DNA from: an uncultured Nitrososphaeraceae archaeon
GTDB taxonomy: Archaea; Thermoproteota; Nitrososphaeria; Nitrososphaerales; Nitrososphaeraceae
DNA length: 64,000 nucleotides
Reading direction: 5' to 3'
NCBI GenBank assembly: GCA_963837175.1
Contig: CAWIMJ010000034.1
Coordinates: forward strand, 32,001-96,000
A program made the position numbers and the translations under genes. A model generated the notes under the pieces. It saw nothing but the letters and a program-made list of their open reading frames with translations, had not been told where the DNA came from and ran no database searches. Shown here piece after piece: positions 15,401 to 40,867 of this stretch. Each line of letters opens with the position of its first letter. Positions within the stretch are counted from its first letter, which is position 1.

Positions 15401-15450
15401 AATGCGGGAAAGATATGGCAGAAAAGCCATTTACATACAGATGGTGCTGT

Positions 15451-18474: not shown

Positions 18475-19779
18475 TCAGCGTGATTGGGAAAGTGTGGGAC
18501 GAACAATTTTGTCCCTTATCTTAAGCCATTCCTGCACCCCACTGAGTGTCTTCCGGTCGGATCGGCTGACCTTTAAGTCCTTGATGCCGAGCATAGAACA
18601 CCATATTGGTGAGTTCTTTAGGATCAGTCTGGCCATTCCTTATCGCTTGAGTGACTGCCAGATTTTCTTGACCTGCACGGATTAACTGGCGAAAACGCTC
18701 GATGAATGTCCCGTACAACCCGCTGGACGATGATGTAGGGTTGACTGTAGAGACGGAAGCAGTTGTAGCAATATTGCCGCCCTGCCGGCGGCAATGCCGT
18801 TGTAAATGTAAATCCAGTCGATGTGCTGATCTTTGCGTAACCAACCCGGGTCCCAACATTGTTTGTCTGTAAGACGGCTTAGTGGCGTAATGTCTTCGTG
18901 TCCAAGGAGGCACGAGCTACGCCACCATGGTTGTTTACTTTTCTTACTTATGTCACAAAGGTTATCTGTATAAAGTGGCCATTTATGTCGTTGTGCGATG
19001 TCCCATGCAAGTCGGGCAACTGTCTCATGTTGTGCCTTAGTGAAACGAAGTCCAGGACGCATGGGTTTTGCAGCAGGATCTGTTATCAGTTCACCGTTGG
19101 GACCCCCATTATATACGCAGGGAACACATTCCACGTGAACATATGTCATGTTTGGGTCGTTATGAAGTGGAATGAGATCCAAGGAGTGCGCGCGACCGGG
19201 CCATCGTGCTCGCCAGAGTGGAATAACCACAGGCATTAGATCACTCTCGAAGCGTCCTTCTTTGATTGAGGCCCACTGATCTTTTGATTTATCAATGATA
19301 TAATTACCTGTTGATTTATCGATGATATAATTACCTTTTTTATCCTCCAGGTAAACATGCCCGACACCCCAAGCCACTTGACGCTCGTTCATTACCTGGT
19401 GTAACTGCTACCCTTCTGTACCAGCCCATCCATTCACGTAATGTGTCCCTCCAGTGCCAGGTTTCTCTCTAGTGCCAACATAGTAACGAACCGCATATTC
19501 ATCGGGAGGTTTGCCAGGCAATTCGCGCTTTAATTGGAACGCCCCCCCTGTAGTATGAACTACAAGGCCGTAGACCTTATCGCGCCAAGGAGTAATTCTG
19601 GGACCATGGCCATTGTGGAGGCCGAGGTCCCGACGTGCTAGGGGAGACAAACCATATTCGAGCTCCCCTTGAGGCGTATCAAATTCAAAACCGCTATACT
19701 CGTCCAGTTCGTTAGTTTTAAGGGAAAAAATTTCTACATCTTCTTCGAGATTAGACATTTGATAACTAACATTTACCAT
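18475..19779 (-). pseudogene. N-acetylmuramoyl-L-alanine amidase (Amidase_2-like) with acidic N-terminus and small C-terminal helical domain; in-frame TAG at 19408-19410 plus frameshifts
   Basis: 'LVVHTTGG', 'THYV', 'HVEC', 'LLGHEDI', 'WDPG'. C-terminal 'ELTNMVFYARH...' continues in a shifted frame as 'QEWLKIRDKIVRPTL'. Confidence 0.7.
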
Positions 19780-20942
19780 CTACTTAAGGAATTTGTATCT
19801 ACAAGGGATAAAATGAGGTAAACCATGATTGATATCTATCGTAGATTTATTGGTATCGTGAGTATGATGGAACTGAAAAGGTATCGTACTGGCGCACAGC
19901 ATATACGTAAAAGGTGTTGAGACGGGGAAAGCTAAGTGATCTCAGAAATGAGGGATTTGGATAGGAATATGGATTGGTTCAATGGAGACATTCGAATCAA
20001 GTTAGACGATGTTTAAGTGATTCTCATATATATGAATAATAAAGAACAGAAAGAAAAGGAAAAGTAGTGAAAACAAAACAATAACTGAATATAGAACACC
20101 AGACAAAAAAGATACTGATTTAATCTTTGCAATTTATCAAGACACACAGGTGCAAAATCATTTCCTAGCAAGACCGACGAATATCATAGTGAAAAGAGAT
20201 TTTATTTGCTACAACATAACATATTTACTAGAATATGCATAAGCTGTTAATGAATGAAATTTTCTAACTTAAGGTGTTCAACAATGAAGGTTCCGTTATT
20301 CAGGGAGATGTCATAAGCGCTGTATCCAAGCCTTTCTTTAGGATAGTACTATTGCACTGAATACAAAGGGACAATAATTGTTGACGTACAAAATAGATTT
20401 GTTAGTTTTGATGAATTTATAGATGGGTTTTCCAACTTTTGAAATGATGTATGCTACAGCTAATGATGGTCGTGGTAGAACTCTCTTCCATAGTTCAATT
20501 CCACCAGTAAATACAGTTTTAAAGGTATGGGAAGAGGCAAAAAGAAAAATTTACGCCATTGCATGGATTTAGTTATTTTGCAAGGCAATATTTCTGCAAT
20601 AAATCAGAATATATCGCCTAACGATGTGCTAATTCTGTTAGCCTATAAAAAGTGAAACGTATAAAACTAAACGGCCGCAGCAATCTTCAAACCAATATTC
20701 AATTAACTATAGTGTGTAGTAGATTGTAACAATCAAAGCAAATATAATATTCCATAAAGCAAAAGGTTGTAAGGTAAGAATACAAAGCAGTATATCTACA
20801 TACATATACATACTACAGATCTGAACATTTAAACTCGTATTACTATTGTACTATAGAAGTTATACTCTTGCGTTCATAACAGACAAGGATCTTTGAAAAG
20901 TCAGTTAAATAACTTGAAATATCTGCTTGACGGCATTAGCCT

Positions 20943-22067
20943 ATGAAAAATCTCATTACTAAAAGTAAAGGAGATCCATATAACGAAAGATTATTTTTTC
21001 GATACTACCCTTTTAATAAAATCACATATACGAAAATTGAAAGGTTACCTCAGTCTAGACCTAATTATGCACAGTATGCCTTTAGTCTTAGGATAGATAC
21101 AGAATCAGAAAATACATTTCCATTTAAGAAAATAAATTACATTCGTAGTGAAGCGGATTCCTCAACGATGTATAGTTATCCTTCTAAACAGTCTACTGCC
21201 GGCTCACCCTTGCCTGCTTCGCCATTATTATCATTAGGTACGCTGAGAGTTATGACAGAGCAATACGGCCTGCCCGAGAGACTCCGTTTCGCTTATAAGT
21301 TTACAGCAGATGATGCCCTATGGACAGCGCGATTTATCTTAGGTGAGGCTGGTGGTGACGATAATGCAGACAATCATGCAGTTATTTGGGCTATGTTTAA
21401 CCGCTATGCCTTTTTTACCCACTATGGTAGTCCATGGGGTGGCACATACAAAACATTTTACAGTTATTTAAGAAGTTACTCGACACCATTACAGTCGCCA
21501 CTAAATAGTTGGGCGGCAGCACAGCGTGTAATGAATCGTCCAGATTTTGTAAGGTTTGGTGGTTACTATACGGGAAAGAAGGTCCCAAAAGCATGGCGGG
21601 ACATCATCCCGATTGGTCAGGCCGGGATGTTCCTTAGACTCCAGAGCACTCCTTGGCATAAATTACCAGAAAAGGCCAGGAGGGTAGCAGAACAAATAAT
21701 GAAAGGTAATATTTCTAACCCAGGAGTAGGGGTTGCAACTGAATTTGCTCATACGTTTGTGATACTCAGGCAAAATATGCAAAACCTAGCAAAAGAACAA
21801 AATAAAAGAAATCCTGCTTCAAATATTGACATAAGTAAAATAAAACCTAGTCTTCAGGAGTGGGAACAGTTCAATGAAAAATATAAGAAAGGATGGAAAT
21901 GGATTGGTCATGTTTCAAATCTCCACCAGATGTCAAAAAACACCTTTTTCAAAGATATGCGTCCCATTCCTAGTGATATACGTAAAAGACTTTATTCAGA
22001 TTTACCATCAGAAGTAGTTCAGAGTACTCCCGCCGTAATCTCTTTCGAAAATACTACTTTTAGGTAA
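20943..22067 (+). CDS. Putative cell-wall hydrolase (SleB/Hydrolase_2-like) with 'PFKKIxY' leader
   Basis: 'LWTARFILGEAGG...AVIWAMFNR' matches the SleB-type catalytic Glu helix (LARxIxGEAxG...AVxxVxxNR). Intact ORF, no signal peptide. Confidence 0.6.
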   Translation: MKNLITKSKGDPYNERLFFRYYPFNKITYTKIERLPQSRPNYAQYAFSLRIDTESENTFPFKKINYIRSEADSSTMYSYPSKQSTAGSPLPASPLLSLGTLRVMTEQYGLPERLRFAYKFTADDALWTARFILGEAGGDDNADNHAVIWAMFNRYAFFTHYGSPWGGTYKTFYSYLRSYSTPLQSPLNSWAAAQRVMNRPDFVRFGGYYTGKKVPKAWRDIIPIGQAGMFLRLQSTPWHKLPEKARRVAEQIMKGNISNPGVGVATEFAHTFVILRQNMQNLAKEQNKRNPASNIDISKIKPSLQEWEQFNEKYKKGWKWIGHVSNLHQMSKNTFFKDMRPIPSDIRKRLYSDLPSEVVQSTPAVISFENTTFR

Positions 22068-23236
22068 GAAGAGTATAAAATTTTCTACCTAAATCACAGA
22101 AGGCTGTATTATCCTTCACAAGATGAATGCTATTGGATACATGAGAGAGAAAATATTATAAGCATAAGTTTCTTTAATTAGATAGACACATATACATACA
22201 CACCTCCTCACAAGGAGTTAAAGTTGGCTTTGGACAATGATCAACACTTTCATAGAAGTTCAAGATTGTTATCTTAATCTATACTAATCTTGTAAAAAAA
22301 ATGAATCCTATAGATCAGGCCTCTTTGCACAATTTCCTCGCACACTTGTAATGATATAACGTAATATGCTTGTCAAATGACGCACTGCTAAAAGATATCT
22401 ATGTTAATGCTACGATTCCCATGTGTCATCAACAATAACTATTATTTGGGTCATAGACTATGTAAAGTAGTCCTTCAACGTTATGGACTATTAGCTACAA
22501 ATGGCTTTGCAATCCTTGAAGCTGCAAGTGGTTACTTCACCAAGAATTTTAATCACCTATGGGTTAGTCTTCAAGTCAATAATCAACAACTTATTAGAGC
22601 TATAAACCGTCATCGCAAAACCTTTAACGAGTATGCGATTGAGGGTCTCTTAAATTGAGAAAAAGAACTAGTTGAAGTCCTACTAAGATCCGGTTTGAGT
22701 TGGATGGTCAATGGCATAGCACAAAAGACTTTATTCACTTTGAGGTACCTAATCCATAAAAACATCTGTTAGGAAGAAGCTTGGTCAACAGCAACGGCAT
22801 TTTGTTTTTGAGTATGCTATAATTAAAGAATAAATAAACGCAGATAGAAGAAGGTCTCTGACAAGAGCCGCCTTTGTAGGTATTATTATTATATTACGAT
22901 AGTCACAACAATTATTTCAAAAATAATTAGGTATGTTTTACAAGCTGGTGACGTGTTAGCTCTACTTTGTATAAAGATAAAGTAAAGCAGAGTTGATAAA
23001 TCTCAGACCATCCCAAAATATATCTATTCAGGTTTGGTTTTGATCTCTTCTTAATGTAGAACCTGGCCAGAGAAGAGGTCTAATTCTTAAATTGTTTTAA
23101 AATGAGACTTACTTTTCTTTAATTATTTCCAGAATTCTTCCTTGACCTATTCTTTTCTATTTTTTATTCTTGCTATTTGCTCTCATAATAGAAGGTTTTG
23201 TCATTCGTTTTTTTTATTTCTTGTACTTCTTGCGGC

Positions 23237-23968
23237 CTAGGTCACCAGTGATGGCATCTCTTTCATATGTGTCTTGACTTTTTTCTTGTACTCTTGCTGC
23301 ATTGGTTGTTGTTCTTGTACTTGTTGTCCTTCTTGTAGTATTTCCTTGTTTAGTTGCTGTTCTGGTTTCAGTTCCTGCGGCTTTGGTTGTTGTTCTTGTA
23401 CTTGTTGTCCTTCTTGTAGTATTTCCTTGTTTAGTTGCTGTTCTGGTTTCAGTTCCTGCGGCTTTGGTTGTTGTTCTTGTACTTGTTGTCCTTCTTGTAG
23501 TATTTCCTTGTTTAGTTGCTGTTCTGGTTTCAGTTCCTGCGGCTTTGGTTGTTGTTCTTGCTGTTGTACTAGAACATCTACTCCTTCCGCACTTATTTCT
23601 TCAATTTTGTCAGTTCCTTCCCACACATACTGCCAACTACCTTTTCCTGCATCATAAATTCTAATGATTTTTAATGATGCTTCCTCATCTAGTTCTTTTA
23701 ATTTTATAGATGACGTGTTGAGTTCACCTACTGTTACAAATTCTTCATCTGTACTATTTTTAAGAGCTAGAATCTTTCCTGTATCGAAATGGAATTCAAT
23801 ACATCGATAAAGACCTTCTATTGGATCATTTCCGGTGGACTGAATATTAACACTGCCTATAGAGGGATAATCTAATGAGATCTTAGACCCTTCTGTTACT
23901 GTAGGCGCAGGTCTTCCTCCTTTCCTTTCATTTAGAAATTTAATGTGAAGTGTGGATTTAGATACCAT
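23237..23968 (-). CDS. Hypothetical protein with a Q/E-rich 27-aa tandem repeat; last gene of the operon
   Basis: 11-bp gap to the upstream gene, with GAGGT before the ATG. Confidence 0.7.
   Translation of the reverse strand: MVSKSTLHIKFLNERKGGRPAPTVTEGSKISLDYPSIGSVNIQSTGNDPIEGLYRCIEFHFDTGKILALKNSTDEEFVTVGELNTSSIKLKELDEEASLKIIRIYDAGKGSWQYVWEGTDKIEEISAEGVDVLVQQQEQQPKPQELKPEQQLNKEILQEGQQVQEQQPKPQELKPEQQLNKEILQEGQQVQEQQPKPQELKPEQQLNKEILQEGQQVQEQQPMQQEYKKKVKTHMKEMPSLVT
23302..23560. repeat. 81-bp tandem repeat x3.2 (QEQQPKPQELKPEQQLNKEILQEGQQV)
   Basis: Identical units start at 23302, 23383 and 23464, with a partial unit at 23545. Confidence 0.95.
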
Positions 23969-23979
23969 TTATAATACCT

Positions 23980-24861
23980 CTATGTAGTTTGGGTTGGCAG
24001 AGGTCTACGTCTCTGGGTCAAGGCAGTCTGGAAGAAGTCTACACCGGTAACCTGATACCATGTGCTTGACAGCTCTTTGAAAAAGAGGGAATCATCGTAT
24101 AACGATGTTGCCGCCCTAATATTCCATTGCGTTTGCTCCACCCTGTTAAGGAATACTTCCATTCTTTTTGCGAGTATGAAAAGATACATAGACTCTTTTG
24201 CCACAGGCACTTTCAGTCTCTGTCCTAGTTCTATTAATCGTGAATTTCTTCCTTGTGACCGAATATTAAGCCTCTGAACTATAAATTTATCATTGTCCAA
24301 CCATTGAAGTAAATCCTGAAATGCAACGGCCCAATAGGAAGCTATATCTTCAATTTCATTGTAGGTTCGATTTATCAACATCTTTTGAAAATCATCTAAT
24401 AATTCGGCAAGAGCACTAGGATTTGATAATTTCTCAACGGTAATTTGCTTATCTAGTACTCCCTGGGCTATGTTAAGCATTATTGATTCAAAGGTCTTGT
24501 TAAATTGTCCATTATATGCTTGTACCCTTTCGAAATTATTTTCCTTGCCTCTAATGACGTATCCAAACATTCTCCAATATGCATTATATCTTAAGCGTTC
24601 TAGATCTAGATCTCGAGTGATCGATGACGATGGCATAGGAAAGATCAAATTTGCTGTCTCCTTTAGCCCTTCTATCAGATCACAATCGTCTTTTCTATTG
24701 AGCCTAAGAACATCATCCGAAATAAAAAATGACCTCAATAAGACTCTAAAAACTTCAACTATTCCAGTAGACTCAATAAAGTATGAGTAAATCAAATGTC
24801 GCCTATTAGAAGGGCATATAGCAGCATTATTAGTCGTTAACTGTGTATTGCTATAACTCAA
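23980..24861 (-). CDS. Conserved-looking helical hypothetical protein ('HLIYSYFIEST...RYNAYWRMFG')
   Basis: Intact 293-aa ORF with ATGA overlap with the upstream gene. The motifs recall uncharacterised bacterial proteins (from memory, unverified). Confidence 0.75.
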   Translation of the reverse strand: MSYSNTQLTTNNAAICPSNRRHLIYSYFIESTGIVEVFRVLLRSFFISDDVLRLNRKDDCDLIEGLKETANLIFPMPSSSITRDLDLERLRYNAYWRMFGYVIRGKENNFERVQAYNGQFNKTFESIMLNIAQGVLDKQITVEKLSNPSALAELLDDFQKMLINRTYNEIEDIASYWAVAFQDLLQWLDNDKFIVQRLNIRSQGRNSRLIELGQRLKVPVAKESMYLFILAKRMEVFLNRVEQTQWNIRAATSLYDDSLFFKELSSTWYQVTGVDFFQTALTQRRRPLPTQTT

Positions 24862-26300
24862 ATCGGTAACCCCCCATATGATCGAGCCAATCTTATGAGA
24901 CCTCCAGGCCTTCCTAACTGATTGTCTAAGCTAGACAGATTTCTTTCATAAGTAGCGTACTCCAATTCTAATCGGGCAGAAGAATTGGACTGGTCAATAT
25001 TTTGGTTTGGCCCTCCTGCTAAAACTACTGACGGGCCGCCTAGGCTTCCTGGAAACATGGCATCAAAATTTACACCCTTAGGCGGGTTTCTTCCAGATGC
25101 AAAATCAGGTATTTCTGAGAATTTTTGTTCGTAGGTCAATATCCACCATATGATGAAAAGATAATCAAACCAATTATCATTATCATACTTTAGCCATGAA
25201 TCAGTTGTTGCCAGAACCTGCGTATCCAAGCCTCTTAGACTTCTAAAAGTGTTTATAAAAATGCTAGGTAATGGATTATTAAGTACATTTCTTAGATCAA
25301 TCAATCTTTCTTGCCTTATAGCGCCGCGCAAGTAATCTATTACAGTATCTAACTCGTCAGCGAAAAGGTCTTGCTGACTCGTAGACGGTATAATAGTTTT
25401 GAATGAGCTTTCGATCGATGGCAATTGTTTTTCAATATAATTGATACCATCTGGTGTACCAGCATTTAGAGAAAACAAACGACCCCATATGTCACGGATG
25501 CTATTAAATACCTCTAAATTGAAACCACCAGAGCTATCATCCTGCACAAGATCAAATAATTGATGAAATATGTTTTCCAATCCAACCTTTCTAATTATGT
25601 CATCAGCATCAGGTGCTAGCGGGTCATCAACACATTGTCCTGTTGTTGGATCTTTATGCTGTCCTGGTGGACATTCTACTGACGGAGCCTGTGGCTGACC
25701 TCTAAGAAGTAGATCATCTACAATTGTTATCTCATTATTATCTTCGTAGTCATCATATCGTGGATCGGATATTAATAGATCAACATATATGTTAGGTTTT
25801 ACAGGATCAGGTACAGGGATGTTGCCAATGCGAAGTACTATATTTTTCAGGATTTCTTTTACCTCATCTTGGAGTGGTATACCTGAGCTAGCCTCTTCCA
25901 AATCATTAAGAAATTGAAGCGCTCTAGTATTCCTTCTTGCTTCTTCCAGACCCCTTAGGAAGCGTGGGTCTGAATGTTCTGGAAAATTATCCACTATTTG
26001 TCTTATGTCCCTATAATTAGGAGATAATTCATAAAACCTTGTCGGAAAAAGCAGTGAATATGCCCAAATGCTGTGCAACAGTTGAGCTATTCTAAAATTA
26101 GTGTATGCAGTTGCAATATTCTTATCCTCGTAAATTTGTACAGTAAAAGCATAAACGGTATTATTAGCCCTTTTTTCCTGCAATGGAATAGTGATTTGAT
26201 TTAGGGTACCGCATGGACACGAGCTGGCTACACGCTGATTAGGGCAAAGTTCGAGGATGATCTGCATTTTTGGATTAATATCATTCCTCCAATCAATCAC
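24858..26300 (-). CDS. Hypothetical protein, acidic, with an internal 'CPPGQHKDPTTGQC' loop
   Basis: 480-aa ORF tightly linked to its neighbours (13-bp gap, 4-bp overlap). Confidence 0.75.
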   Translation of the reverse strand: MIDWRNDINPKMQIILELCPNQRVASSCPCGTLNQITIPLQEKRANNTVYAFTVQIYEDKNIATAYTNFRIAQLLHSIWAYSLLFPTRFYELSPNYRDIRQIVDNFPEHSDPRFLRGLEEARRNTRALQFLNDLEEASSGIPLQDEVKEILKNIVLRIGNIPVPDPVKPNIYVDLLISDPRYDDYEDNNEITIVDDLLLRGQPQAPSVECPPGQHKDPTTGQCVDDPLAPDADDIIRKVGLENIFHQLFDLVQDDSSGGFNLEVFNSIRDIWGRLFSLNAGTPDGINYIEKQLPSIESSFKTIIPSTSQQDLFADELDTVIDYLRGAIRQERLIDLRNVLNNPLPSIFINTFRSLRGLDTQVLATTDSWLKYDNDNWFDYLFIIWWILTYEQKFSEIPDFASGRNPPKGVNFDAMFPGSLGGPSVVLAGGPNQNIDQSNSSARLELEYATYERNLSSLDNQLGRPGGLIRLARSYGGLPI

Positions 26301-26313
26301 AACAGAAATACGC

Positions 26314-26778
26314 CTATAACTTATAGGTTCTTTTTACGATTGCGATACGACGTGGTGGATTATTATTAGGATCTAGAAAAACTACGTCTGAGTCTTTGTC
26401 TATCCAGCTTTCATCGGATGGAAATATCCAGTCATATTTTTGAGCAGATATCCTATAAAGGATTTTCGCAAGACTCTTAAATTTTCTAATCTCTGCTTGG
26501 TTGTTTAAAGGGTTGAAGAGAGAGATTAGATCTAGTGAAGCTAACATGGGTAGTCCAATAGAAAATTGAGAATTACCGTTGGCATTACCAAGCAGATACG
26601 GGTCATCAATGGATTCAATCTCTTTACGAAGAGTACGCGCTGACTGTAGAATTTCATAATCTAATGCTATATACTGGATCAATCCTTGTCTCATTATATG
26701 GTTAATGTGTCTGAATTCCTCTGACCCTCGGTCGTTTATGCTATCAATAAAACTTCCTCCATTCATAGTAGAGCTCAT
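26314..26778 (-). CDS. Hypothetical protein
   Basis: 154-aa ORF preceded by a GGAGGT Shine-Dalgarno-like sequence. Confidence 0.7.
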   Translation of the reverse strand: MSSTMNGGSFIDSINDRGSEEFRHINHIMRQGLIQYIALDYEILQSARTLRKEIESIDDPYLLGNANGNSQFSIGLPMLASLDLISLFNPLNNQAEIRKFKSLAKILYRISAQKYDWIFPSDESWIDKDSDVVFLDPNNNPPRRIAIVKRTYKL

Positions 26779-26996
26779 TTTATTTTAACCTCCAATATTT
26801 GAACCTTAAATGATTCATTGAAAGATGGAGATGATGATTCTGCAGAAGATGAAGGGAAATCAGTTTCTAGTAGCTGTTGTTCTTGCTCAGATTCTCTGTA
26901 GATTATTTTTTTAAATGGATAAACCTCACTTTTTCCAGATTCAAAATATTCATTACTTCCATAGCCGCTGTTTTGAAAACGGGATCCTCTTTCCAC
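26775..26996 (-). CDS. Leader-only 73-aa peptide, a copy of the N-terminus of the 31572 protein
   Basis: 'MERGSRFQNSGYGSNEYFESGKSEVYPFKKIIYRESEQEQQLLETDF...' is nearly identical to the start of 30541-31572. Confidence 0.55.
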   Translation of the reverse strand: MERGSRFQNSGYGSNEYFESGKSEVYPFKKIIYRESEQEQQLLETDFPSSSAESSSPSFNESFKVQILEVKIK

Positions 26997-27035
26997 AACA
27001 ACGTAACTGTGTGCAACTATATCAGTTTTTTTCTG
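26807..27035. repeat. 229-bp direct repeat (upstream region plus leader), copy of 31383-31611
   Basis: Near-identical from TAAATGATTCATTG to ATCAGTTTTTTTCTG. Confidence 0.95.
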
Positions 27036-27181
27036 AGATCTATTTTCTTAATTGATATTCTTCACATAGGTCAGTTAGAGCGAATATTGAGTGTTTTAGG
27101 TTTTCAATAAACAAATAATTATATCCCAAAAAATGATAACAATAAAAGGATGGTTAGTAATAAGTAGCAATCAACCTCATA

Positions 27182-28489
27182 TCACGCAATCTTCGCTCCT
27201 CCTAGAGCTAGAGACACTAACCATTTGTACATCTGTTCTATAATCCAGTAATGCGACCTTCCACCAAACATCTGTATTAAACGGAAGCCGAGCAAGGCAA
27301 CAATAGGATGATTAACAAGCATTTTGGCATCGACAGAGAAATTAGAAAAGTCTTTGCCTAAAAACTCCCTTAATCTTGTAGGAGATGAAAAGTGCCAAGG
27401 TAAAAGCATGTCTAGACTTTTACCAGAAAAAGCCTTCATTTTAGTTCTAGAAATAGCATTGCATATTACAGGTAGCAAAGGTATTGAATCGGTTATGACT
27501 TTTGATGCTTCAGCACCTCCAGCACTGATGGGATATAAAATAGACAAAACCCTATCTAAATCATCCCACGGTCCTCTGCCATATGCGATTTTACATGCAC
27601 TGATTCCAAGCATCAATCTGATTATTCCTGCTGGATGAGGATCCCCTTGAATGACTCTCGCGATCCTACGAGCACTGCCTGCAACAACCTCATAAAGTCC
27701 AAGTATTGAGGCAATATTACTTTGATGTAGAGAGTAAAAATCAGCGGCAATTTCGCTTGCCCATGATTCCCATAAATGTGCTAAATATTTCGGTCCACCA
27801 GCGGCTAGTATACTATTGTATAGTAATTCACCTAGCTCTTGGTTCCAGTTTGTTATGTGTGCAACCTGATGACCACATTCATGTAATATGGAAGTTAGCC
27901 TCGGAAGAGGAATAGCGGAGCGAACTACCTTAATAACTGCCGCAGGGTTTGTATTGGAATCCCATAAATAAATTCCAGCTTTAAGAATAGAAGCTCCTTC
28001 TCCTCTGTCTTGATAGCAAATAACAGTAGGAACTTCATGACCTAATGGTTGCAGTACTTGCTGTAAGCTAGCATACGCTATTTGATCACATCCTCTGAGT
28101 AGCATTCCCATATCACGCTCTGAACGTGTATGAAGCAAATCTACGTAATATTCGAAAACTTGCTCAGTACTGAAGTAATGATCTCTGACACTTTGTAAGT
28201 TTGAACGGAAGAGAAGGAGTCCTTCCATATTTCTGATGTTAGTGAATTCTTTTTTTAACTCCGCCAGGTGTGCCTTCAAGCCTGCGGTTCTGGTTTGAAA
28301 AGATCTTTCAATAGCCAACCTTTGTTTATTACCTAAATGCCTTCTAGAGGCTTCTGAGACATTAGCTATGGGGTTGACAAGGCCATCCACTGCTACAGTT
28401 AAGCTGTTCAAGGATAATCGTTGCAAAAACAAACAGTTGTTAAAATCCTTCTCTATAACATTAGAGCCCTGAAGTCTGCTGCTGCTCAT
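27182..28489 (-). CDS. HEXXH-motif putative zinc metallopeptidase-like protein
   Basis: 'SILHECGHQ', downstream 'WASEIAADFY' (third-ligand ExxAD pattern) and 'DPHP'. Confidence 0.7.
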   Translation of the reverse strand: MSSSRLQGSNVIEKDFNNCLFLQRLSLNSLTVAVDGLVNPIANVSEASRRHLGNKQRLAIERSFQTRTAGLKAHLAELKKEFTNIRNMEGLLLFRSNLQSVRDHYFSTEQVFEYYVDLLHTRSERDMGMLLRGCDQIAYASLQQVLQPLGHEVPTVICYQDRGEGASILKAGIYLWDSNTNPAAVIKVVRSAIPLPRLTSILHECGHQVAHITNWNQELGELLYNSILAAGGPKYLAHLWESWASEIAADFYSLHQSNIASILGLYEVVAGSARRIARVIQGDPHPAGIIRLMLGISACKIAYGRGPWDDLDRVLSILYPISAGGAEASKVITDSIPLLPVICNAISRTKMKAFSGKSLDMLLPWHFSSPTRLREFLGKDFSNFSVDAKMLVNHPIVALLGFRLIQMFGGRSHYWIIEQMYKWLVSLALGGAKIA

Positions 28490-28500
28490 GCCCCTTCTAA

Positions 28501-31500
28501 TTACAGTCTATATCCTGGTAATGGTTCTATAGGTGATAAAGTGATAGATGACAAGAGTCTTGGGAGATTCCAAGCCAGCGATGCAATTGTCAACCTTCGG
28601 AGATTGGATATAAAACCACTAGGCAGTATAAGGCTCGATGTAAGCGTTATCCCATCTGGGTGAGCAGATATGCTAGATATTCGTGCAGCTATCTTTCCAA
28701 TGCTTCTGTTCAAGCGCCTTATCACCAATCCAAGAATCAATGAAACTATTTGCTTTGATATCCATGAGGGTATTTTCAGTCTTCTCAGCTGCTTATACAA
28801 TATGTTGGATCCTAGCGTCTTTATAATATCAGATACTGACTTGTTAAGATCTGCAATCATTCTGGTTCTTGCCACGCTCTTAACACTACGTATCGTAAGA
28901 TCATTCAAATATATTCTGAGTTCAAGTCTAGTTCTATCAAATCGTATACTAATGTCATTGCTTCTCACAGCTCCCTTGTCTGGCAAAGGAGCAGAAGGGG
29001 TTTCCTGCATTGGCCTTCCTACAGGCCTTAAAATTTTTACGAAGCAATAGTTTCTCCAAGATGGATCATATCGCAGGATCGATGGCCTTAGTTTACGAAT
29101 TCTTCTGCGTCTTGATAAATATGGGTTATTTAGCAATAATCCTGCAGCAGTAGGAGTCAATGGTATTATTTGGTCTATATGCAAAGCACTCATTCCACCA
29201 ACATAGTCGCGAGCAATCATAGCCAGCCTAGTTCCGACCGGCAGACTTTGGAAAACACGTATACTCACACGAACAGGTGTTGTACCATCCCAACCTTGTG
29301 TCTTACGTAAGATATCAAGTAACGTAGTTCCTCCAAAGCTACGTACACGTGAGGCTAAAGTTGGATACAGGGTTAATTCGGATCTTTGAGATAAAACCTT
29401 GTATGTTTTTCGAGGAATCCACATAATATTAGCTGGGATTCTTCTTCTAGACACAAATTCTTCACGTAACGCTTGGCCTGGAACATTGTCTTTGATAGAT
29501 TCTAGAATAGACTCCTGAACATGAGCCTCCAATACTTGGTCTTCTCCTTCCAAAATGGATTCTGGCAGCGCTGCCTATCCTCTCGACTGATTCTGTCACA
29601 ATATTTGCTATCGTTTCTGCTACTAGTCTATTTTGATTGGGTAATTCTCTTGGGTTTTCTAAAGAGAGTAATCGAAGACCAGCATCTGCAATAACGCGGC
29701 TGAGGGGATTAGCAAAATTCTGGCCGATAAGTGGTTTTAATAACTTAGCAACAAGTTTCGCAAGAAAACCCACTACCCGCTGTCTTCCAATGAGTCTTAT
29801 TCCTATTCTTAATACCGGAAGAAGAGCAGGAGCAAACTCCTGTGTAAGTCTTTGAAGATTAGGTGGATATTCGCTTACTAAACCATTAATAAAATTATTG
29901 CGAGCCTCATTTACGACAAGGGCTTCGTTTACACTTCCAACAAACTCCTCCTCCTCACTTTCCGCTTCAGGAGTATAATATTCTGGAGTAAAGCCTGAGG
30001 TCTGAGCTTCAGGAGTATAATATTCTGGAGTAAAGCCTGAGGTCTGAGCTTCAGGAGTATAATATTCTGGAGTAAAGCCTGAGGTCTGAGCTTCAGGAGT
30101 ATAATATTCTGGAGTAAAGCCTGAGGTCTGAGCTTCAGGAGTATAATATTCTGGAGTAAAGCCTGAGGTCTGAGCTTCAGGAGTATAATATTCTGGAGTA
30201 AAGCCTGAGGTCTGAGCTTCAGGAGTATAATATTCTGGAGTAAAGCCTGAGGTCTGAGCTTCAGGAGTATAATATTCTGGAGTAAAGCCTGAGGTCTGAG
30301 CTTCAGGAGTATAATATTCTGGACTAGCTTTCCATCTCTGCAAAGAGCTCTCTTTCAAAATCTCGTTCAAATTCATAGACCTGCTGGAATTCATGTCCAT
30401 GATATAGTTCTTCTTCCGCTTCACCAGTAAAGCTCTCATTATAGATATTCTCATCTTCATCTTCAAATTCTAGTTCTGTTTCATCCAGAGTTTCAGCACG
30501 CAATACGTTTGAACCGGTTTCTGCTGTTTCCAACTCGCTTTCAGATGGTGGCGTAGTAGGCGGTTGTTCTACTGGTGGTTGTTCTACTGGTGGTTGTTCT
30601 ACTGGTGGTTGTTCTACTGGTGGTTGTTCTACTGGTGGTTGTTCTACTGGTGGTTGTTCTACTGGTGGTTGTTCTACTGGTGGTTGTTCTACTGGTGGTT
30701 GTTGGTACTGGTGGTTGTCCATAACCAAGGGCTCCGAGCGCCTTCTGAGCTATAGCACGATATTGTGGTGGAATATATCGCAATCCTAATCTAAGCACTT
30801 TTCTCACTAGAGGTCTAATACGACGCCCAATTGTTCCAAGTATTCTTCTTAGAATCAACTTAACAGCAGCTGATCCTATCACACTCTTAGCAACACTAAT
30901 GCCCTTCCTTGCTAAACTGAGACCTTTCCCTAAAACTCTTTTTGCCTTTTTCAACCATTTACCCAGAAATTCCTCAGGCTGAACTGGTTGAAATGAGTCA
31001 ATGACACGTTTGGCAGCTTCGTATTCCATTTCAGGTTGTATGTTGGACTGAACATAATTAGAAAAACGTTCAAGCTCATTCTGAATATTTCTCACCGTTC
31101 CACCATAGGTTACTTCATAGAATTGATTGAACATATTCTCGAAATTAGGATTTCTGAGGACCTCTTCAAGCTCACCACCAGTTCCTGTTGTATGACTTAC
31201 ATAGTTAGTAAACTTTGATTCAGCTTCACTTGCCAGCTGTACAAGTGACTGTTCAAATTCATGATCATGTACTTGGTTAGAAAAGAGTTCGAATTCAAAT
31301 TCTCGATCTATCATCTGATATTCTTGTGCTTGTTGTTGTTGTTCTGTCTCACCTGTAGTTATCGACATATTTTCTGTACCAGTAAATGATTCATTGAAAG
31401 ATGGAGATGATGATTCTGCAGAAGATGAAGGGAAATCAGTTTCTAGTAGCTGTTGTTCTTGCTCAGATTCTCTGTAGGTTATTTTTTTAAATGGATAAAC

Positions 31501-31572
31501 CTCACTTTCAGCAGACTCAAAATATTCATTACTTCCATATCCGCCGCTTTGAAAACGGGATCCTCTTTCCAC
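28501..31572 (-). CDS. Single ~1020-aa protein (acidic leader, cationic amphipathic helices, tandem repeats) split into four ORFs by three 1-bp insertions
   Basis: Removing one base near 30705, 30331 and 29575 gives continuous reading 'GYGQPPVQQPPVE', 'EMEASPEYY' and 'ERIAALPESILEGEDQ'. Confidence 0.7.
29964..30323. repeat. 42-bp perfect tandem repeat x8.5 (TPEAQTSGFTPEYY)
   Basis: Unit GGAGTATAATATTCTGGAGTAAAGCCTGAGGTCTGAGCTTCA, no spacers. Confidence 0.95.
30562..30718. repeat. 15-bp tandem repeat, about x10 (QPPVE)
   Basis: Unit GGTTGTTCTACTGGT. Confidence 0.95.
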
Positions 31573-32104
31573 AACAACGTAACTGTGTGCAACTATATCA
31601 GTTTTTTTCTGGGCTTTGATATTTTTAAAATCAACTCTTTTGAACGTAATTTACTTCTGTTAATATTAGAATATATTAAGACATTAATAAACATCTAAGT
31701 CTAAATGGTAAATCAAAAAAGATTTTTCTTAAGTAGAGTTAAGCTTCTGATTTTTTATTTTGTCATACCGAAAGGATGTATATGCGTATTTATGATACTC
31801 AACAAAAACATTCGCTTAAATCCTAATTTTGGCATATTAAGCAATTCATGGTAATGTCATCATCAATTATCAATTAGCTTCTACCTAAGATTATTACTAT
31901 TATAAAGCAAGATGTAGTGTTTTTACTATAATAGAATAGAACATATATTATTACGATAACTTGAGTGCCTACGATAAGCTAAACATATCCGGAACAAATA
32001 TAGATTCCAATACAATTATTGATCCAACAATAGGCATATTTTCCAATAAAAAAATTTACCATTATTTGTCTTGTTATCAGTTATTTTAATTCCATCCATG
32101 TAGA

Positions 32105-35416: not shown

Positions 35417-36286
35417 TTATAGCTTCCTCTTTTCTTTTAGCAATATATCAATTTGACCATGCAATATGTTTTTGTGTTGCATTAAGGTTTCATAAGCTAT
35501 CCAATTATCTTCAATTTCAGAAATGATTCCCCCAATTCTGTTTAAGGCAACCTTTAATGCAATAATAGATTTATCAAATGACCTTTGAGCTTTATGGTCG
35601 ATATCTACCATTTTGATGGCAGATAAGTAAGGTTCTTTGTTGTAATTGTAAGCTGAATTTTCCTTGAGATCTTTAACTAATTCACGTACTTTTCTTGAGG
35701 AAAAACGATTCTTTGATATTAATTGTGTTAGCTGAGATTGTTTATCCTTGTCGTCTAGAGATAACAATTCTTCTGCTACAGCTGTACTGATTGAAGAATT
35801 AGAAATTGAGTTCAGAACATCTAAAGGCAAATCTAGCAGTTTTATGCGCCTATGTACATAGCTCACACTCTTGCCTATTTTTGCAGATAGGTGAGAGATG
35901 CCACCCCAACCATGATCCATAATATAAGTTTTAAATGCCTGTGCTTCTTCTTTTGGATCTAATGTTTTTCTTTGTATATTTTCTATTAGTGAGATTTCAA
36001 ATGCTTCTTTATCATCAAGATCTAGTACATGGCAAATAATTTTTCTCCAACCTAGGCTTTTACATGCATGATATCTTCTATTGCCTGAAACAATTTCAAA
36101 ATATGACTCTTTCGTTCTTACAAGTATTGGTTGTAAAAGCCCTTTCTCCTTTATGGAGTCAGCAAGTTCGATAGAGGTATCATCACTCATATTACGAGAT
36201 AAATAAGAAGATCGTTTTATCCTAGAAAGGTCAATATCTTCTATTATGCCTAGTATCAAGGGAGAAGAAGAAAATAGTTTTGACAT
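35417..36286 (-). CDS. ParB/RepB/Spo0J-family protein
   Basis: 'ELADSIKEKGLLQPILVR...IVSGNRRY', 'ENIQRKTL', HTH 'KIGKSVSYV'. Confidence 0.9.
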   Translation of the reverse strand: MSKLFSSSPLILGIIEDIDLSRIKRSSYLSRNMSDDTSIELADSIKEKGLLQPILVRTKESYFEIVSGNRRYHACKSLGWRKIICHVLDLDDKEAFEISLIENIQRKTLDPKEEAQAFKTYIMDHGWGGISHLSAKIGKSVSYVHRRIKLLDLPLDVLNSISNSSISTAVAEELLSLDDKDKQSQLTQLISKNRFSSRKVRELVKDLKENSAYNYNKEPYLSAIKMVDIDHKAQRSFDKSIIALKVALNRIGGIISEIEDNWIAYETLMQHKNILHGQIDILLKEKRKL

Positions 36287-39742: not shown

Positions 39743-40867
39743 ATGTATAGTCCGAAAAACGATAATGGACGTAAGCCGGAAACCTCTATTCCGCTTCAAG
39801 TTAGTTGCGGCTTTGATGGCGTTGGTCAAAATGTCTTGGTGAGCGAGACCGACTTGCGTGATGTAATTTCGACCAATGCCCTAGCTGACAAAACAAACTG
39901 GGTGGATGAAGCGTGCAAACTCATCTTTGAGTCAGCTGGTCCACGATCCGGATTCGGATTTCTACTCCGTTACTGGCTATCTCGTTATAGCGACATCCCA
40001 CCCGCGACTCTCCTAGCATTAATGGCCGCCGCGATTGATCCCCCTGTTACAGCTACCTTCTACAACTTCTTGAATCCAGCGCTTACCGACGACCACGATA
40101 TCGACACAGAAGCAGATAGTATACGAAAGACGCTTATGGCGTCGGTACAAGACCCTGGTCTAGCCAATCTTGATACCTTAATCAAAAATGCCCTAAAAAG
40201 TGCTCGGAAATCTCATTTACCTCATTTATACGAAACCAAATGGAGCGCTGTTTACGTAGTCTCAATCATTAGAGGCGCTGCGATTCAACTCCAACTAGAG
40301 GCCATGGTCGGAAATTCTCATGAGGGAAAGGACAAATTGCTCTTAGCTGACTCATATCATAGTAGATACGTGTATAAAGCATATTCTCGCCGATTCGGCC
40401 CCGACCCAAGGAACGGAACTTACCACGCATTTGAGACTCAAGAATACCAGCCGGAAAAAGGTGATATAATTATTCAGGATATGGAGGCAGACAACATCGA
40501 CGACGTGCTGAAATTTGCAGAGATCCCAACCCGCCTTCATCCTGAAAAAGGTGATGATCCACCTCATCATACGCATGGAGACCTCGTGGTAGGAGTACAT
40601 CCAAATCACGATTGCGTAATAACACTTGGCGGCAATTTAGGGAAAGCATTTGAGGGAAGCGTGAGACGTCGCGCATACCCGTTAGATGCTGACGGACGTC
40701 TAATCGTGGACAGTAAGAGATTCTTCAGTAATGAGCTAAATGATGGAACTCTGCCTCCGCTTTCTGACGCTGCTGGCCCCTTCCGCAATAGCACCGGTAA
40801 GATATTCGCGTTATTGAGACCTGTCGTGGAATGCCATGAGATTCCGGCTCAGAAGGTTGACGAATGA
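39743..40867 (+). CDS. DUF2272-domain protein (CHAP/NlpC-like putative peptidoglycan amidase)
   Basis: 'WSAVYV', 'HSRYV', 'PEKGDII', 'HGDLVV', 'TLGGN...SV'; visibly more GC-rich than its flanks. Confidence 0.7.
   Translation: MYSPKNDNGRKPETSIPLQVSCGFDGVGQNVLVSETDLRDVISTNALADKTNWVDEACKLIFESAGPRSGFGFLLRYWLSRYSDIPPATLLALMAAAIDPPVTATFYNFLNPALTDDHDIDTEADSIRKTLMASVQDPGLANLDTLIKNALKSARKSHLPHLYETKWSAVYVVSIIRGAAIQLQLEAMVGNSHEGKDKLLLADSYHSRYVYKAYSRRFGPDPRNGTYHAFETQEYQPEKGDIIIQDMEADNIDDVLKFAEIPTRLHPEKGDDPPHHTHGDLVVGVHPNHDCVITLGGNLGKAFEGSVRRRAYPLDADGRLIVDSKRFFSNELNDGTLPPLSDAAGPFRNSTGKIFALLRPVVECHEIPAQKVDE

Follow-up and report, generated by a model that had tools for sequence, protein, structure and literature searches.

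Polymorphic toxin systems, reportedly set out by Zhang, Aravind and co-workers in 2012, are said to join a conserved N-terminal trafficking part to a hypervariable C-terminal enzyme. Secreted bacteriolysins of the prolysostaphin type are pro-enzymes that carry an acidic N-terminal pro-region and a Sec signal peptide and are not known to have a dedicated operon. A short N-terminal marker on unrelated effectors is found in the cargo signals of eCIS and in the MIX-type markers of type VI systems, while bacteriocin and RiPP clusters encode leader peptides together with dedicated leader peptidases.

Peptidoglycan-free archaea have been reported to carry patchily distributed genes for peptidoglycan hydrolases that kill bacteria, 68% of the archaeal peptidoglycan hydrolases being reported without a known signal peptide and the signal-peptide-less ones being somewhat enriched in genomes with sheath domains (P=0.059) (Strock et al. 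2025, PMC12352652). The main text of that paper contains no occurrence of Nitrososphaerales, Methanosarcina, operons or gene neighbourhoods.

The gene cluster in an ammonia-oxidising archaeon

The window, that is the whole stretch of 64,000 nucleotides that was analysed, belongs to an archaeal ammonia oxidiser of soil, as indicated by an archaeal AmoA (E=2.7e-118) and two archaeal 16S genes in the genome, and not to a bacterium, as an earlier note on this DNA had assumed. That note had described six or seven tightly coupled minus-strand genes. The ORF coordinates bear out the same-strand run (23237-31572, minus strand; consecutive spacings of 11 nt, 185 nt, a 4-nt overlap, 13 nt, a 4-nt overlap and 11 nt), and the number becomes five genes and one duplicated fragment. 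The gene cluster is real, yet it differs from the picture given by the raw ORFs.

The largest gene, here called the giant gene (28501..31572, minus strand), had been taken for an intact single frame and is represented in the window by four ORFs (343, 134, 334 and 350 aa) that overlap and occupy three frames, with frameshifts near 30704, 30325 and 29574. The four ORFs are collinear with intact proteins of 987 and 889 aa from two related archaea. Contigs of three other soil metagenome runs, which come from different studies and are otherwise identical over the giant pieces, carry indels at exactly these three sites, and applying all three yields an open frame of 1049 codons. Since the indels restore the frame, they suggest that the assembly contains indel errors or, at the very least, that intact alleles exist in nature. 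Altogether, in the window sequence at least four island genes have a broken frame, so that this copy could be dead; the breaks in several of them, the giant included, are most likely indel errors in the assembled sequence. Contigs from an RNA library match the giant at 30690-31365 as well as other parts of the cluster, a weak hint of transcription.

The giant protein is composed, in this order, of an N-terminal leader, an acidic tract, an EEFLG motif (noted earlier for the first protein, where it is indeed found) with an 85-aa cationic amphipathic segment, acidic repeat arrays made of 15-nt and 42-nt units, a second segment of EEFVG/hydrophobic-cationic type, and a basic C-terminal domain. The 85-aa segment has a net charge of +21 and a mean helical moment of 0.52, as compared to 0.27 +/- 0.05 in 500 shuffles, none of which reaches its helical hydrophobic moment. 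The giants of the module measure 800-1000 aa, and their acidic and cationic-amphipathic parts alternate.

The 'leader-only peptide' of the earlier note exists as a 73-aa ORF (26775..26996, minus strand) but is not a separate gene. A 229-nt direct repeat (26807-27035 and 31383-31611, 97% identity) covers the 5' end of the giant gene plus 39 nt upstream, and the ORF is, judged by its sequence, a recent partial duplicate of that 5' end; a contig of run X1 covers 26417-26836 with zero differences. Likewise, the 154- and 480-aa ORFs, previously listed as two separate proteins, make up one gene of about 635 aa (24858..26778, minus strand; split near 26312-26323), as the close relatives P0358 (635 aa, 90% identical) and P0359 (623 aa) each cover both pieces. 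This protein is found only in Nitrososphaerales-type loci, with distant homologues of 523 and 538 aa at the same position in loci L007 and G203, and it has no profile similarity to the giants or to the F293 family described below. The last gene of the run encodes a 243-aa protein rich in Q, E and K (23237..23968, minus strand; 3.3 copies of an 81-nt repeat), which has no relative in the 82 loci compared below. On the other side, a ParB-like protein (35417..36286, minus strand; Pfam ParB_N and HTH_ParB) is 55% identical to the products of the genes that immediately precede the giants of G203 and L007; all four Nitrososphaerales-type loci have this ParB-like gene on the upstream side of the giant, the copy in L021 being split. 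A transposase-like pair and integrase-like genes are also present near the island in the window.

The HExxH and F293 proteins

The giant gene is followed by that of a 435-aa HExxH protein (27182..28489, minus strand), a putative zinc metallopeptidase of a family without annotation. It contains the sequence HECGH, and 21 diverse relatives all keep its residues H203, E204 and H207, in agreement with the HEXXH protein proposed earlier. E218, E246, D250 and D283-P284-H285 are invariant as well, and E218, E246 and H285 are candidate third metal ligands. More than 1056 relatives were found, and every name given to them is 'hypothetical'. The AF2 model (pLDDT 89) has no Foldseek match in the PDB at E<=0.001, and the wide VIA search matched only residues 5-123, an N-terminal three-helix bundle, so that the catalytic part was barely probed. 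Neither search matched a zincin-type fold, a point that weighs somewhat against the reading given below, and the assignment, made from sequence, is that of a putative zinc peptidase.

The third core gene (23980..24861, minus strand) encodes a 293-aa all-helical protein. The pattern 'HLIY..IE.T...NAY.RMFG' of the earlier note is recovered here, as 'HLIY..IE.T' and 'NAYWRMFG'. Its relatives, the F293 family, form 205 representative clusters at E<=0.001 and are all-helical proteins of 290-450 aa that match no known fold: the AF2 model (pLDDT 92.4) reaches a best VIA Z of 4.5 over 48,161 chains and has no Foldseek match at E<=0.001 in the PDB or BFVD.

Pfam gives no at-cutoff match for any cluster protein, and neither NCBIfam nor PADLOC gives one at E<=0.01, the PADLOC-DB 2.0 defence models yielding zero families for the 10 proteins scanned. 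The PHROGs scan covered seven window proteins, the pieces of the window giant and the 73-aa ORF not being among them, and a Methanosarcina giant, and gave no match for these at E<=0.01; the repeat array of the G203 giant (residues 429-524, a PEA/SNPY stretch) matches one PHROGs family of unknown function. A tblastn search of 50,697 phage records, with the HExxH protein as query, found no match. No transporter, ATPase or shell protein is recognised in the core, and the core proteins of the window have no 19-residue hydrophobic window reaching 1.6. The earlier note had seen no resemblance by motif to phage tail/eCIS, ABC, encapsulin or CRISPR components; in the libraries searched (Pfam, NCBIfam, PADLOC, PHROGs and solved folds) the three core proteins map to no known system.

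A module scattered across bacteria and archaea

A relative of the HExxH protein is encoded in 397 species genomes, and the 80 loci kept belong, judged by their record titles, to 15 or more bacterial phyla and to Methanosarcina, Methanothrix and two Nitrososphaerales-type MAGs. Among 82 loci, the HExxH protein is present in 82, the giant in 81 and F293 in 78, on the same strand and in a fixed order: the giant, then the HExxH protein, then F293. The co-occurrence of these proteins stated in the earlier note is thereby found to be true, and in many phyla. The module is present in monoderm bacteria, diderm bacteria and archaea, and, among 401 genomes of the host's class, was found in 2-3 only; it is widespread, horizontally scattered and so far without annotation.

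Neither a transporter nor an ATPase is conserved in the 82 loci (an ABC ATPase family occurs in 11, at variable distance), which weighs against the release proposed below, and the 10 kb around the core contain no conserved machine gene. The loci contain no phage-like gene, and an encapsulin shell of the HK97 fold is found neither as an at-cutoff Pfam match in the cluster nor as a conserved extra gene in the loci. Phage_sheath_1 (PF04984) is absent from the archaeal genomes G000 (91% complete) and G203 (complete, one contig), with a positive control in three named genomes; for the tube protein PF06841 there was no match, the control likewise matching nowhere. On the upstream side, 10-16 loci have regulators of the BTAD, LuxR and sigma-54 types.

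One to three multi-domain enzymes, hypervariable and mostly peptidoglycan hydrolases, come after the core in bacteria and methanogens. Scanning of 52 of the 63 downstream proteins (a size limit excluded the other 11) gave the Pfam domains Peptidase_M15_3 (11 proteins), DUF2272 and M15_2 (7 each), VanY, Glucosaminidase, M15_4 and PG_binding_1 (5 each), and Amidase_2, SLT, M23, Amino_oxidase, Trypsin_2 and PhoD (2 each); PhoD and DUF7800 occur in two of the 52, and TIR_2, PLDc_2, T6SS_HCP and VgrG3-like_C in one protein each. The downstream proteins are mosaics of one another, and the cargo differs extremely between related loci. Methanosarcina, Methanothrix and the ammonia-oxidising archaea have no peptidoglycan; a Methanosarcina locus (L053) carries DUF2272, SLT and PG_binding_1 cargo, and a Methanothrix locus (L018) M15, VanY and PG_binding_1 cargo. 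Against a reading of these proteins as effectors, the DNA read in two other intact archaeal loci has no peptidoglycan hydrolase: G203 has an APOBEC-like deaminase downstream of the core, and L007 an M20 peptidase and a type I restriction system beside the module.

The enzymes of the source genome are spread over about 30 kb and do not lie directly downstream of the core. One leader-bearing enzyme (20943..22067, plus strand) has two PF[KN]KIxY motifs in its first 70 residues, followed by a domain of about 250 aa that has no Pfam model and is elsewhere fused to peptidoglycan hydrolase domains. About 42 of its 87 relatives have precomputed Pfam domains, nearly all peptidoglycan-related (M23, VanY, M15, Amidase_2, DUF2272, M74, PG_binding), and it shares 35-37% identity with parts of downstream proteins from L057, L059 and L081. 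A second leader-bearing enzyme (9578..12386, minus strand; ORFs of 562 and 406 aa with a frameshift near 10698-10798) has a body of PhoD-like phosphatase type and the motif SPFRIIQYTEYE at residue 77. Its two pieces have no Pfam match, and both are collinear with one 695-aa ORF adjoining the module in L064 (41% and 34% identity). By these similarities, the scattered leader-bearing enzymes are homologous to the cargo of the bacterial loci.

Cell-wall enzymes had also been noted nearby, and here the similarity is seen but is weak or fragmentary. An Amidase_2-like gene of the N-acetylmuramoyl-L-alanine amidase type (18521..19779, minus strand), broken into three frame-shifted pieces, matches Amidase_2 at 18682-19392 with E=3.9e-4 and 21.2 bits against a gathering cut-off of 26. 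A DUF2272-like protein without the leader motif (39743..40867, plus strand; Pfam DUF2272 E=4e-5, 24 bits against a cut-off of 27) shares 31-33% identity with parts of downstream proteins from L029 and L048 (E=1e-25), and a 47-aa ORF at 2053-2196, read by eye, is presumably a lytic transglycosylase fragment.

The leader and the acidic tract

The motif PF[KRN]xIxY has six matches in the open frames of at least 80 aa of the whole 3.8-Mb genome, five of them N-terminal and in the window at 12164-31494, so that within the genome the local leader motif is confined to the island. The leader of the giant had been said to recur on the enzymes at 20943 and 12386; this holds for the short motif and not for the whole leader of about 60 aa, of which the genome has only two copies.

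Across loci, two motifs of the SPF type open both the giants and the enzymes, and a strongly acidic tract comes next. At least two [SATN]P[FY]x motifs occur in the first 150 aa of 53 of the 74 giants and 25 of the 63 downstream proteins, as compared to none of 81 HExxH proteins, none of 78 F293 proteins and 5 of 749 other ORFs of at least 300 aa; some of the downstream proteins (TIR_2, pentapeptide, Hcp) are perhaps unrelated neighbours, which, like the modest share with the motifs, counts against the reading given below. Over residues 1-150 the median net charge is -27 in the leader-bearing enzymes and -22 in the giants. By a crude proxy for a signal segment (a 10-residue Kyte-Doolittle mean of at least 2.2 within the first 40 aa), an N-terminal hydrophobic stretch is present in none of the 25 leader-bearing downstream proteins, in line with the earlier inference of a route without Sec/Tat.

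A profile built from the 25 effector leaders finds four more downstream proteins and nine further ORFs, seven of which have at least 500 aa and lie further downstream in the same loci, and it finds nothing unrelated. It reaches, weakly, three of the 74 giants, and the leaders of giants and enzymes are alike only in motif architecture. With a profile of the giant leader, only the giant is found in four of five carrier genomes; both results count against the reading given below. The same profile finds nothing in 40 relatives without the core, which supports the tie between leader and core put forward earlier as a test.

What the module may do

We consider the chances about evenly balanced that this is a self-contained antibacterial effector module, which arms and releases leader-tagged enzymes. 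In such a module, for which we infer proteolysis, membrane action, a direction of use and a role for each core protein, the leader and acidic tract would serve as recognition and pro-region and hold the proteins inert inside the producer, and a dedicated peptidase, the HExxH protein, would cut the leader or pro-region. Once freed, the giant's cationic amphipathic segments would act on membranes, so that the enzymes leave the producer and/or cross the outer membrane of the prey, and the helical F293 protein may be an adaptor or chaperone. More tentatively, and with somewhat greater doubt than belief, the three core proteins may represent an unrecognised arming and release system that needs no ATPase, membrane channel or phage-derived part, works in monoderms, diderms and archaea, uses a portable SPF/acidic tag and allows archaea to deploy hydrolases lacking signal peptides against bacteria.

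The module resembles polymorphic toxins in its conserved N-terminal leader on mosaic, quickly swapped C-terminal enzyme domains and in its tandem leader-enzyme genes beside a conserved gene set; it differs in that the companion genes match no known trafficking machine or its Pfam domains and that its largest leader-bearing protein, the giant, is conserved and not variable. As in prolysostaphin, wall-degrading enzymes have an acidic N-terminal stretch that might keep them inactive until cut, but here they lack the N-terminal hydrophobic stretch and have three conserved partner genes. The eCIS and MIX systems also have a short marker common to unrelated effectors whose genes lie close to the machine or elsewhere, whereas neither a sheath gene in the two archaeal genomes nor a phage-like gene in the loci was found. 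An N-terminal leader common to the products, with a putative peptidase encoded alongside, is reminiscent of RiPP and bacteriocin clusters; unlike these, the substrates would be of 500-2000 aa, the leader has about 50 aa plus an acidic tract, and there is no conserved modification enzyme or ABC exporter. With the archaeal hydrolases of Strock et al. the module shares its peptidoglycan-free hosts, and it would offer a route for the signal-peptide-less ones.

Protease-activated bacterial gasdermins and holin-endolysin lysis cassettes are similar in that a putative protease adjoins a putatively membrane-active protein, with a wall hydrolase in the operon. This arrangement, with strongly amphipathic cationic segments next to the putative protease, could suggest a suicide or abortive-infection module, in which a triggered HExxH protease frees the membrane-active segments of the giant and a wall hydrolase on the producer itself. 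The lack of recognised export machinery in the loci, the restriction system in L007 and the single TIR_2 and PLDc_2 proteins fit such a function. We regard it as unlikely, as no sequence or fold similarity to those systems was found, no PADLOC family matched at E<=0.01 and hypervariable mosaic cargo is the pattern of weapons against others. Moreover, Methanosarcina and Methanothrix carry peptidoglycan hydrolase cargo, and the ammonia-oxidising archaeon has such enzymes beside its module; since these hosts have no peptidoglycan, the cargo would be useless against the producer and cannot lyse it.

It is improbable that the core proteins play an accessory part (as adaptors, chaperones or a maturation protease) for cargo which another machine delivers, for instance a contractile injection or type VI/VII system with its genes elsewhere in the genome. 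The T6SS_HCP and VgrG3-like_C domains and the reported sheath-domain enrichment of signal-less hydrolases are consistent with this possibility, to which are opposed the absence of Phage_sheath_1 from G000 and G203 with its control positive, the monoderm, diderm and archaeal carriers having no such machine in common, and no machine gene being conserved within 10 kb.

An equally small likelihood is given to the island of the source genome being the decaying relic of a transferred element with no present function. The three frameshifts of the giant, the one in the 635-aa gene and the breaks in the PhoD-like, amidase-like and M20 genes would fit decay, as would the duplicated fragment, the scattered cargo, the nearby transposase- and integrase-like genes and the rarity of the module in the class; the frame-restoring indels in three other runs, the RNA-library matches and the intact HExxH and 293-aa genes speak against it. 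A developmental or envelope-remodelling module acting on the own wall (sporulation, cyst or filament formation) is very improbable: peptidoglycan hydrolases commonly serve in remodelling, complex life cycles are found in many of the carriers (Actinomycetota, Myxococcota and Cyanobacteria) and the upstream regulators would suit such a role, but it is at odds with hydrolase cargo in peptidoglycan-free archaea, with the extreme variability of cargo between related loci and with the amine oxidase, trypsin-like and PhoD-like domains, which do not concern the wall.

Implications

Even if the mechanism proposed here for a self-contained antibacterial effector module is wrong, there are three large protein families with confident models to name and study, for one of which the searches run detected no structural relative. 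If it is true, at least 397 species from at least 15 bacterial and two archaeal phyla carry an unannotated weapon system unlike anything known, and the route by which archaeal and bacterial wall hydrolases without signal peptides reach their targets would be explained. The case for soil ammonia-oxidising archaea and methanogens fighting bacteria would also gain direct genomic evidence, and the short portable cargo tag would serve to find new antibacterial enzymes and perhaps to load chosen proteins.

Host and Gene Content

The 193-kb contig belongs to a genome of 3.81 Mb (58 contigs, 91% complete) in which an AmoA of the archaeal type (E=2.7e-118) is encoded along with two 16S rRNA genes, likewise archaeal. 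The host is thus an ammonia-oxidising archaeon and not the soil bacterium supposed in the earlier note. G+C ranges from about 32 to 41% along the window, with a genome value of about 34%, and the genus may be Nitrosocosmicus-like. The stretch 23237-31572 is occupied by a minus-strand run of ORFs, which overlap by 4 nt or are set apart by short spacers. None of these ORFs has a credible (at-cutoff) match in Pfam, and NCBIfam and PADLOC gave no match at E<=0.01; PHROGs returned nothing for the seven window proteins scanned.

The map of this run differs from the one first drawn. The giant gene (28501..31572, minus strand), taken as a single open frame, consists in the window of four overlapping ORFs (343, 134, 334 and 350 aa) in three frames, which are collinear with intact proteins of related archaea (987 aa in G203, a complete genome, and 889 aa at locus L007). 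The 154- and 480-aa ORFs, listed as separate genes, are one gene that is covered whole by single proteins of close relatives, of 635 aa (90% identity) and 623 aa, which span both pieces. The 73-aa "leader-only peptide" does exist as an ORF, yet not as a distinct gene, as it lies inside a direct repeat of 229 nt that copies, at 97% identity, the first 190 nt of the giant plus 39 nt upstream. With these corrections, the true content is five genes (giant, HExxH protein, ~635-aa protein, 293-aa protein and repeat-rich 243-aa protein) and one duplicated fragment. In the 243-aa last gene, an 81-nt unit present 3.3 times (23295-23560, 98% matches) is translated into a Q/E/K/P-rich repeat.

A Conserved Three-Gene Core

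The HExxH protein (435 aa) has more than 1056 relatives in a large protein collection, all "hypothetical" where named, including proteins of Nitrosococcus, Nitrosomonas, Aquimarina, Polyangiaceae and Methanosarcina, while 205 representative clusters match the 293-aa protein at E<=0.001. When the HExxH alignment was run against one genome per species, a relative turned up in 397 genomes, and the best 80 loci were taken. By a hand count of record titles, 76 of these are bacterial (about 23 Actinomycetota, 15 Bacteroidota, 8 Pseudomonadota, 8 Acidobacteriota, 5 Myxococcota, 4 Cyanobacteria, 3 Gemmatimonadota and about ten other groups with a single member each); the remaining four are from archaea (Methanosarcina, Methanothrix and two Nitrososphaerales-type MAGs). 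Upon clustering of all ORFs of at least 100 aa in the 80 loci, the window and G203, three families proved near-universal, on one strand and in fixed order: the HExxH protein (82/82), the giant (81/82) and the 293-aa family (78/82). Antisense shadow ORFs aside, no further family occurs in more than 16 of the 82 loci, and the commonest extra genes encode regulators (sigma-54 activator, BTAD, LuxR) and an ABC ATPase. All four Nitrososphaerales-type loci have a ParB-like gene upstream and an additional gene of 523-635 aa between the HExxH and 293-aa genes; when the profile of this 523/635-aa family was compared with those of the 293-aa family and the giants, the probability was about 1% or less.

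Within the host class, the 293-aa family is present in 2 and the HExxH protein in 3 of 401 genomes, and no 293-aa protein was found in the genomes of 40 close relatives, a distribution that fits horizontal spread. A plasmid search yielded only four megaplasmid or chromid records, at 27-30% identity, and a locus search with the 293-aa protein as the sole query found no relative. A variant locus in another genome (G301:C43; L090:6850-11941, minus strand) carries a 258-aa protein and then an HExxH protein (E=1e-59, family profile), followed by two unrelated proteins of ~435 aa, with no 293-family gene detected.

Structure of the Core Proteins

The giant opens with the leader, which is followed by an acidic helical part and the conserved FE(D/E)F-x-GK motif. 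Behind this motif come a stretch rich in lysine and arginine, a repeat-prone acidic linker, a second stretch of hydrophobic-cationic character and a helical part, and a conserved domain of ~330 aa forms the C-terminus. The first cationic stretch of the window giant has a net charge of +21 over 85 residues and a mean helical hydrophobic moment of 0.52, which 0 of 500 shuffles (0.27 +/- 0.05) reached; the stretch bears the signature of membrane-binding amphipathic helices. The 258-aa protein that precedes the HExxH gene in G301 represents a minimal form of the giant, with one acidic part, an FLGK motif and one cationic stretch. None of the window core proteins has a 19-residue hydrophobic window of at least 1.6.

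In a confident model (pLDDT 89), the HExxH protein starts with a bundle of three helices, and its body is helical with the exception of two short strands. Foldseek found no PDB match for this model at E<=0.001, and in a wide VIA search the helix bundle alone was matched. The HExxH motif itself, E218, E246, D250 and a DPH motif are invariant in the family, making the protein a plausible, if putative, zinc peptidase. The 293-aa protein is modelled as all-helical (pLDDT 92.4); with a best VIA Z of 4.5 over 48,161 chains and no Foldseek match at E<=0.001 in PDB or BFVD, its predicted fold appears to have no structural relative detectable by these two methods. Its complex prediction with the leader scored 0.30 against a mark of 0.32, which speaks neither for nor against binding. 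In PDB sequence searches, the family profiles of the HExxH protein, the 293-aa protein and the giants retrieved rows at chance level only, and atlas look-ups with the Methanosarcina proteins gave nothing but "hypothetical" clusters for the giant and scores below 0.9 for the 293-family member.

A Shared Leader and Variable Downstream Enzymes

A large ORF on the same strand directly follows the 293-aa gene in 63 of the 80 loci. The proteins encoded are mosaics with patchily shared domains, and the commonest Pfam families in the 52 that were scanned (11 being left out under a size limit) are peptidoglycan-active: Peptidase_M15_3 (11 proteins), DUF2272 and M15_2 (7 each), VanY, Glucosaminidase, M15_4 and PG_binding_1 (5 each), and Amidase_2, SLT and M23 (2 each). 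Amino_oxidase, Trypsin_2 and PhoD occur twice each, and PLDc_2, TIR_2, VgrG3-like_C and others in single cases. The cargo comprises DUF2272, SLT and PG_binding_1 at the Methanosarcina locus, and M15, VanY and PG_binding_1 at that of Methanothrix. These methanogens have no peptidoglycan, hence their cargo hydrolases must target bacteria. In G203, the gene right after the 293-family gene encodes a 299-aa AID/APOBEC-like deaminase (APOBEC_N, E=2.8e-6; G203:C1:642587-643486, L006:1588-2487), which may be a non-wall cargo and is followed by FGase-like and dioxygenase-like genes.

Giants and downstream enzymes begin with two motifs of the xSPF(L) type, about 25-30 residues apart, and then a long acidic tract. 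At least two [SATN]P[FY]x motifs within the first 150 residues were found in 53/74 giants and 25/63 downstream proteins, as opposed to 0/81 HExxH proteins, 0/78 members of the 293-aa family and 5/749 other ORFs of at least 300 aa, four of these five resembling additional enzymes with the same leader. A profile of the 25 enzyme leaders identified 4 more downstream proteins and 9 other ORFs, of which seven (at least 500 aa) lie further downstream in the same loci and the last two are of 169 aa (at a contig end) and 70 aa. This profile reaches 3/74 giants, weakly, whereas a giant-leader profile matches giants alone in 4/5 carrier genomes, with no match in the Streptomyces genome G420 or in 40 relatives without the core. 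Thus, giant and enzyme leaders share a motif architecture and not a full domain. The median net charge of residues 1-150 is -27 in leader-bearing enzymes and -22 in giants, and none of the 25 leader-bearing enzymes has an N-terminal hydrophobic stretch by a crude proxy. In six loci (L018, L020, L024, L016, L052 and L065), the enzyme-leader profile marks two or three tandem leader-bearing enzymes after the core; in one enzyme of L018, a flavin amine-oxidase-type domain starts right behind the leader.

Leader-Tagged and Wall Enzymes in the Window

The earlier note had proposed a core accompanied by leader-tagged enzymes scattered nearby, and this holds. Indeed, the motif has a local form, PF[KRN]xIxY, which occurs six times genome-wide (six-frame translation, open frames of at least 80 aa), and five occurrences fall in the window at 12164-31494, each within the first 80 residues of its frame, in the giant, its duplicated fragment, the protein at 20943 (twice) and the protein at 12386. 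The enzyme bodies are in turn homologous to cargo of other loci. In its body, the 20943 protein has a domain that no Pfam model covers; this domain shares 35-37% identity with downstream-enzyme segments of three bacterial loci and is often fused, among 87 relatives, to M23, VanY, M15, Amidase_2, DUF2272, M74 or PG_binding; a PDB sequence search with this protein matched a low-complexity stretch only. The 12386 protein and the next ORF resemble PhoD-type cargo and are collinear with one 695-aa ORF adjoining the module in a Solirubrobacteraceae locus, while the DUF2272-like protein at 39743, without the leader motif, matches cargo segments of two loci. The arrangement in the window thus turns out to be a local form of the general pattern.

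Other genes of the window are of note. A 225-aa protein (6238-6915, plus strand) has a Gamma_PGA_hydro (poly-gamma-glutamate hydrolase) domain (E=1.7e-18) and is, putatively, another archaeon-borne enzyme acting on a bacterial surface polymer. A 47-aa ORF (2053-2196, minus strand), which we take by eye to be the catalytic motif region of a lytic transglycosylase, is probably the cell-wall enzyme previously placed at 1985 and seems to be a fragment. An integrase-like gene (7044-7964, plus strand; Phage_integr_3, E=5.9e-5, below cut-off) is preceded, 4.5 kb upstream, by a short ORF (2387-2672, plus strand) that nearly repeats its C-terminal ~70 residues; between the two are found a transposase-like ORF pair (3527-4341) and a 256-aa ORF rich in cysteine (4611-5381), in a stretch of higher G+C (0.42). 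Two paralogous small proteins (1420-1839 and 15812-16096, both plus strand) have a hydrophobic N-terminus and near-identical middles.

Proposed Mechanism and Alternatives

A putative peptidase, a masked cationic amphipathic giant, variable lytic enzymes and a common leader fit a self-contained pro-protein system, as do the lack of a signal-type hydrophobic stretch and of a recognised transporter, and hosts of every envelope type. We give an even chance to the core being a module dedicated to the maturation and release of antibacterial enzymes, and considerably less to any single step. Marking and neutralising the giant and the enzymes would be the task of the leader and acidic tract, and cleavage of the leader-bearing proteins that of the HExxH protein; the released cationic segments would open membranes, those of the producer for release and/or those of the prey; and the enzymes would then degrade the prey wall. 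For the 293-aa protein, a role as adaptor or chaperone is conceivable.

Among the alternatives, self-lysis or abortive infection would turn the same lytic enzymes on the producer. This is unlikely, the main counter-argument to any self-directed role being that peptidoglycan hydrolases are carried as cargo by peptidoglycan-free archaea. Even less probable is that the core provides accessory factors of a machine encoded elsewhere; dependence on a known injection machine is countered by the absence of a sheath gene from the window's genome and from the complete G203, and by a distribution of the module that is independent of envelope type.

That the cluster is a dead relic in this host genome, as its broken frames might suggest, is equally improbable. 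The region was compared with contigs from one soil RNA library and from three soil-metagenome runs, each of a different study, and those covering the three frame junctions of the giant match the window sequence save for one indel per junction: one base fewer at 30704 in runs X1, X6 and X15, two bases extra after 30325 in X1, and one base fewer at 29574 in X6. With all three indels applied by script, the longest stop-free frame grows from 369 to 1049 codons, while any one or two give 429-749. As the indels restore a single frame, the giant gene is intact in nature, and its breaks in the window stem either from indels of the assembly or from strain-specific lesions. Assembly indels are favoured because the M20 peptidase, PhoD-like, amidase-like and 635-aa genes are frame-broken too; no listed contig bridges the split site of the 635-aa gene (26312-26323). 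The M20 peptidase gene (32105-33604, plus strand) seems to be split into three consecutive ORFs of 146, 128 and 186 aa, which is a further sign of assembly indel errors or of gene decay; the L007 module is flanked by an intact M20 peptidase of 468 aa (Pfam E=1e-24). The giant carries perfect arrays of a 42-nt (x8.6) and a 15-nt (x10.4) unit, and two of its three junctions (30704 and 30325) sit at array edges. In X1, the HExxH gene shows compensating indels at 28060-28063 (one base in and one out, 3 nt apart) and a cluster of substitutions at 28046-28081, a variable patch inside an otherwise conserved gene. Wall remodelling, self-directed as well and facing the same objection from the archaeal cargo, is very improbable.

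Relation to Known Systems

A maturation and release module would be similar in logic to polymorphic effector systems, pro-enzyme bacteriolysins, protease-activated pore formers and leader-peptidase clusters, but no component is similar to theirs in sequence or fold in the libraries searched. No description of the module was found in the literature searched, which included PMC12352652, PMC12704722 and bioRxiv 10.64898/2026.07.27.741052, and one may already exist. All in all, what the earlier note had observed is confirmed in part, and its interpretation is in part supported. Strock et al. 2025 (PMC12352652) show that bacteria are killed by archaeal peptidoglycan hydrolases, 68% of which have no known signal peptide. 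For archaeal hydrolases of this kind, the module represents a candidate route, and the finding matters in that it brings to light a large, unannotated gene module that crosses domains and is tied to antibacterial enzymes.
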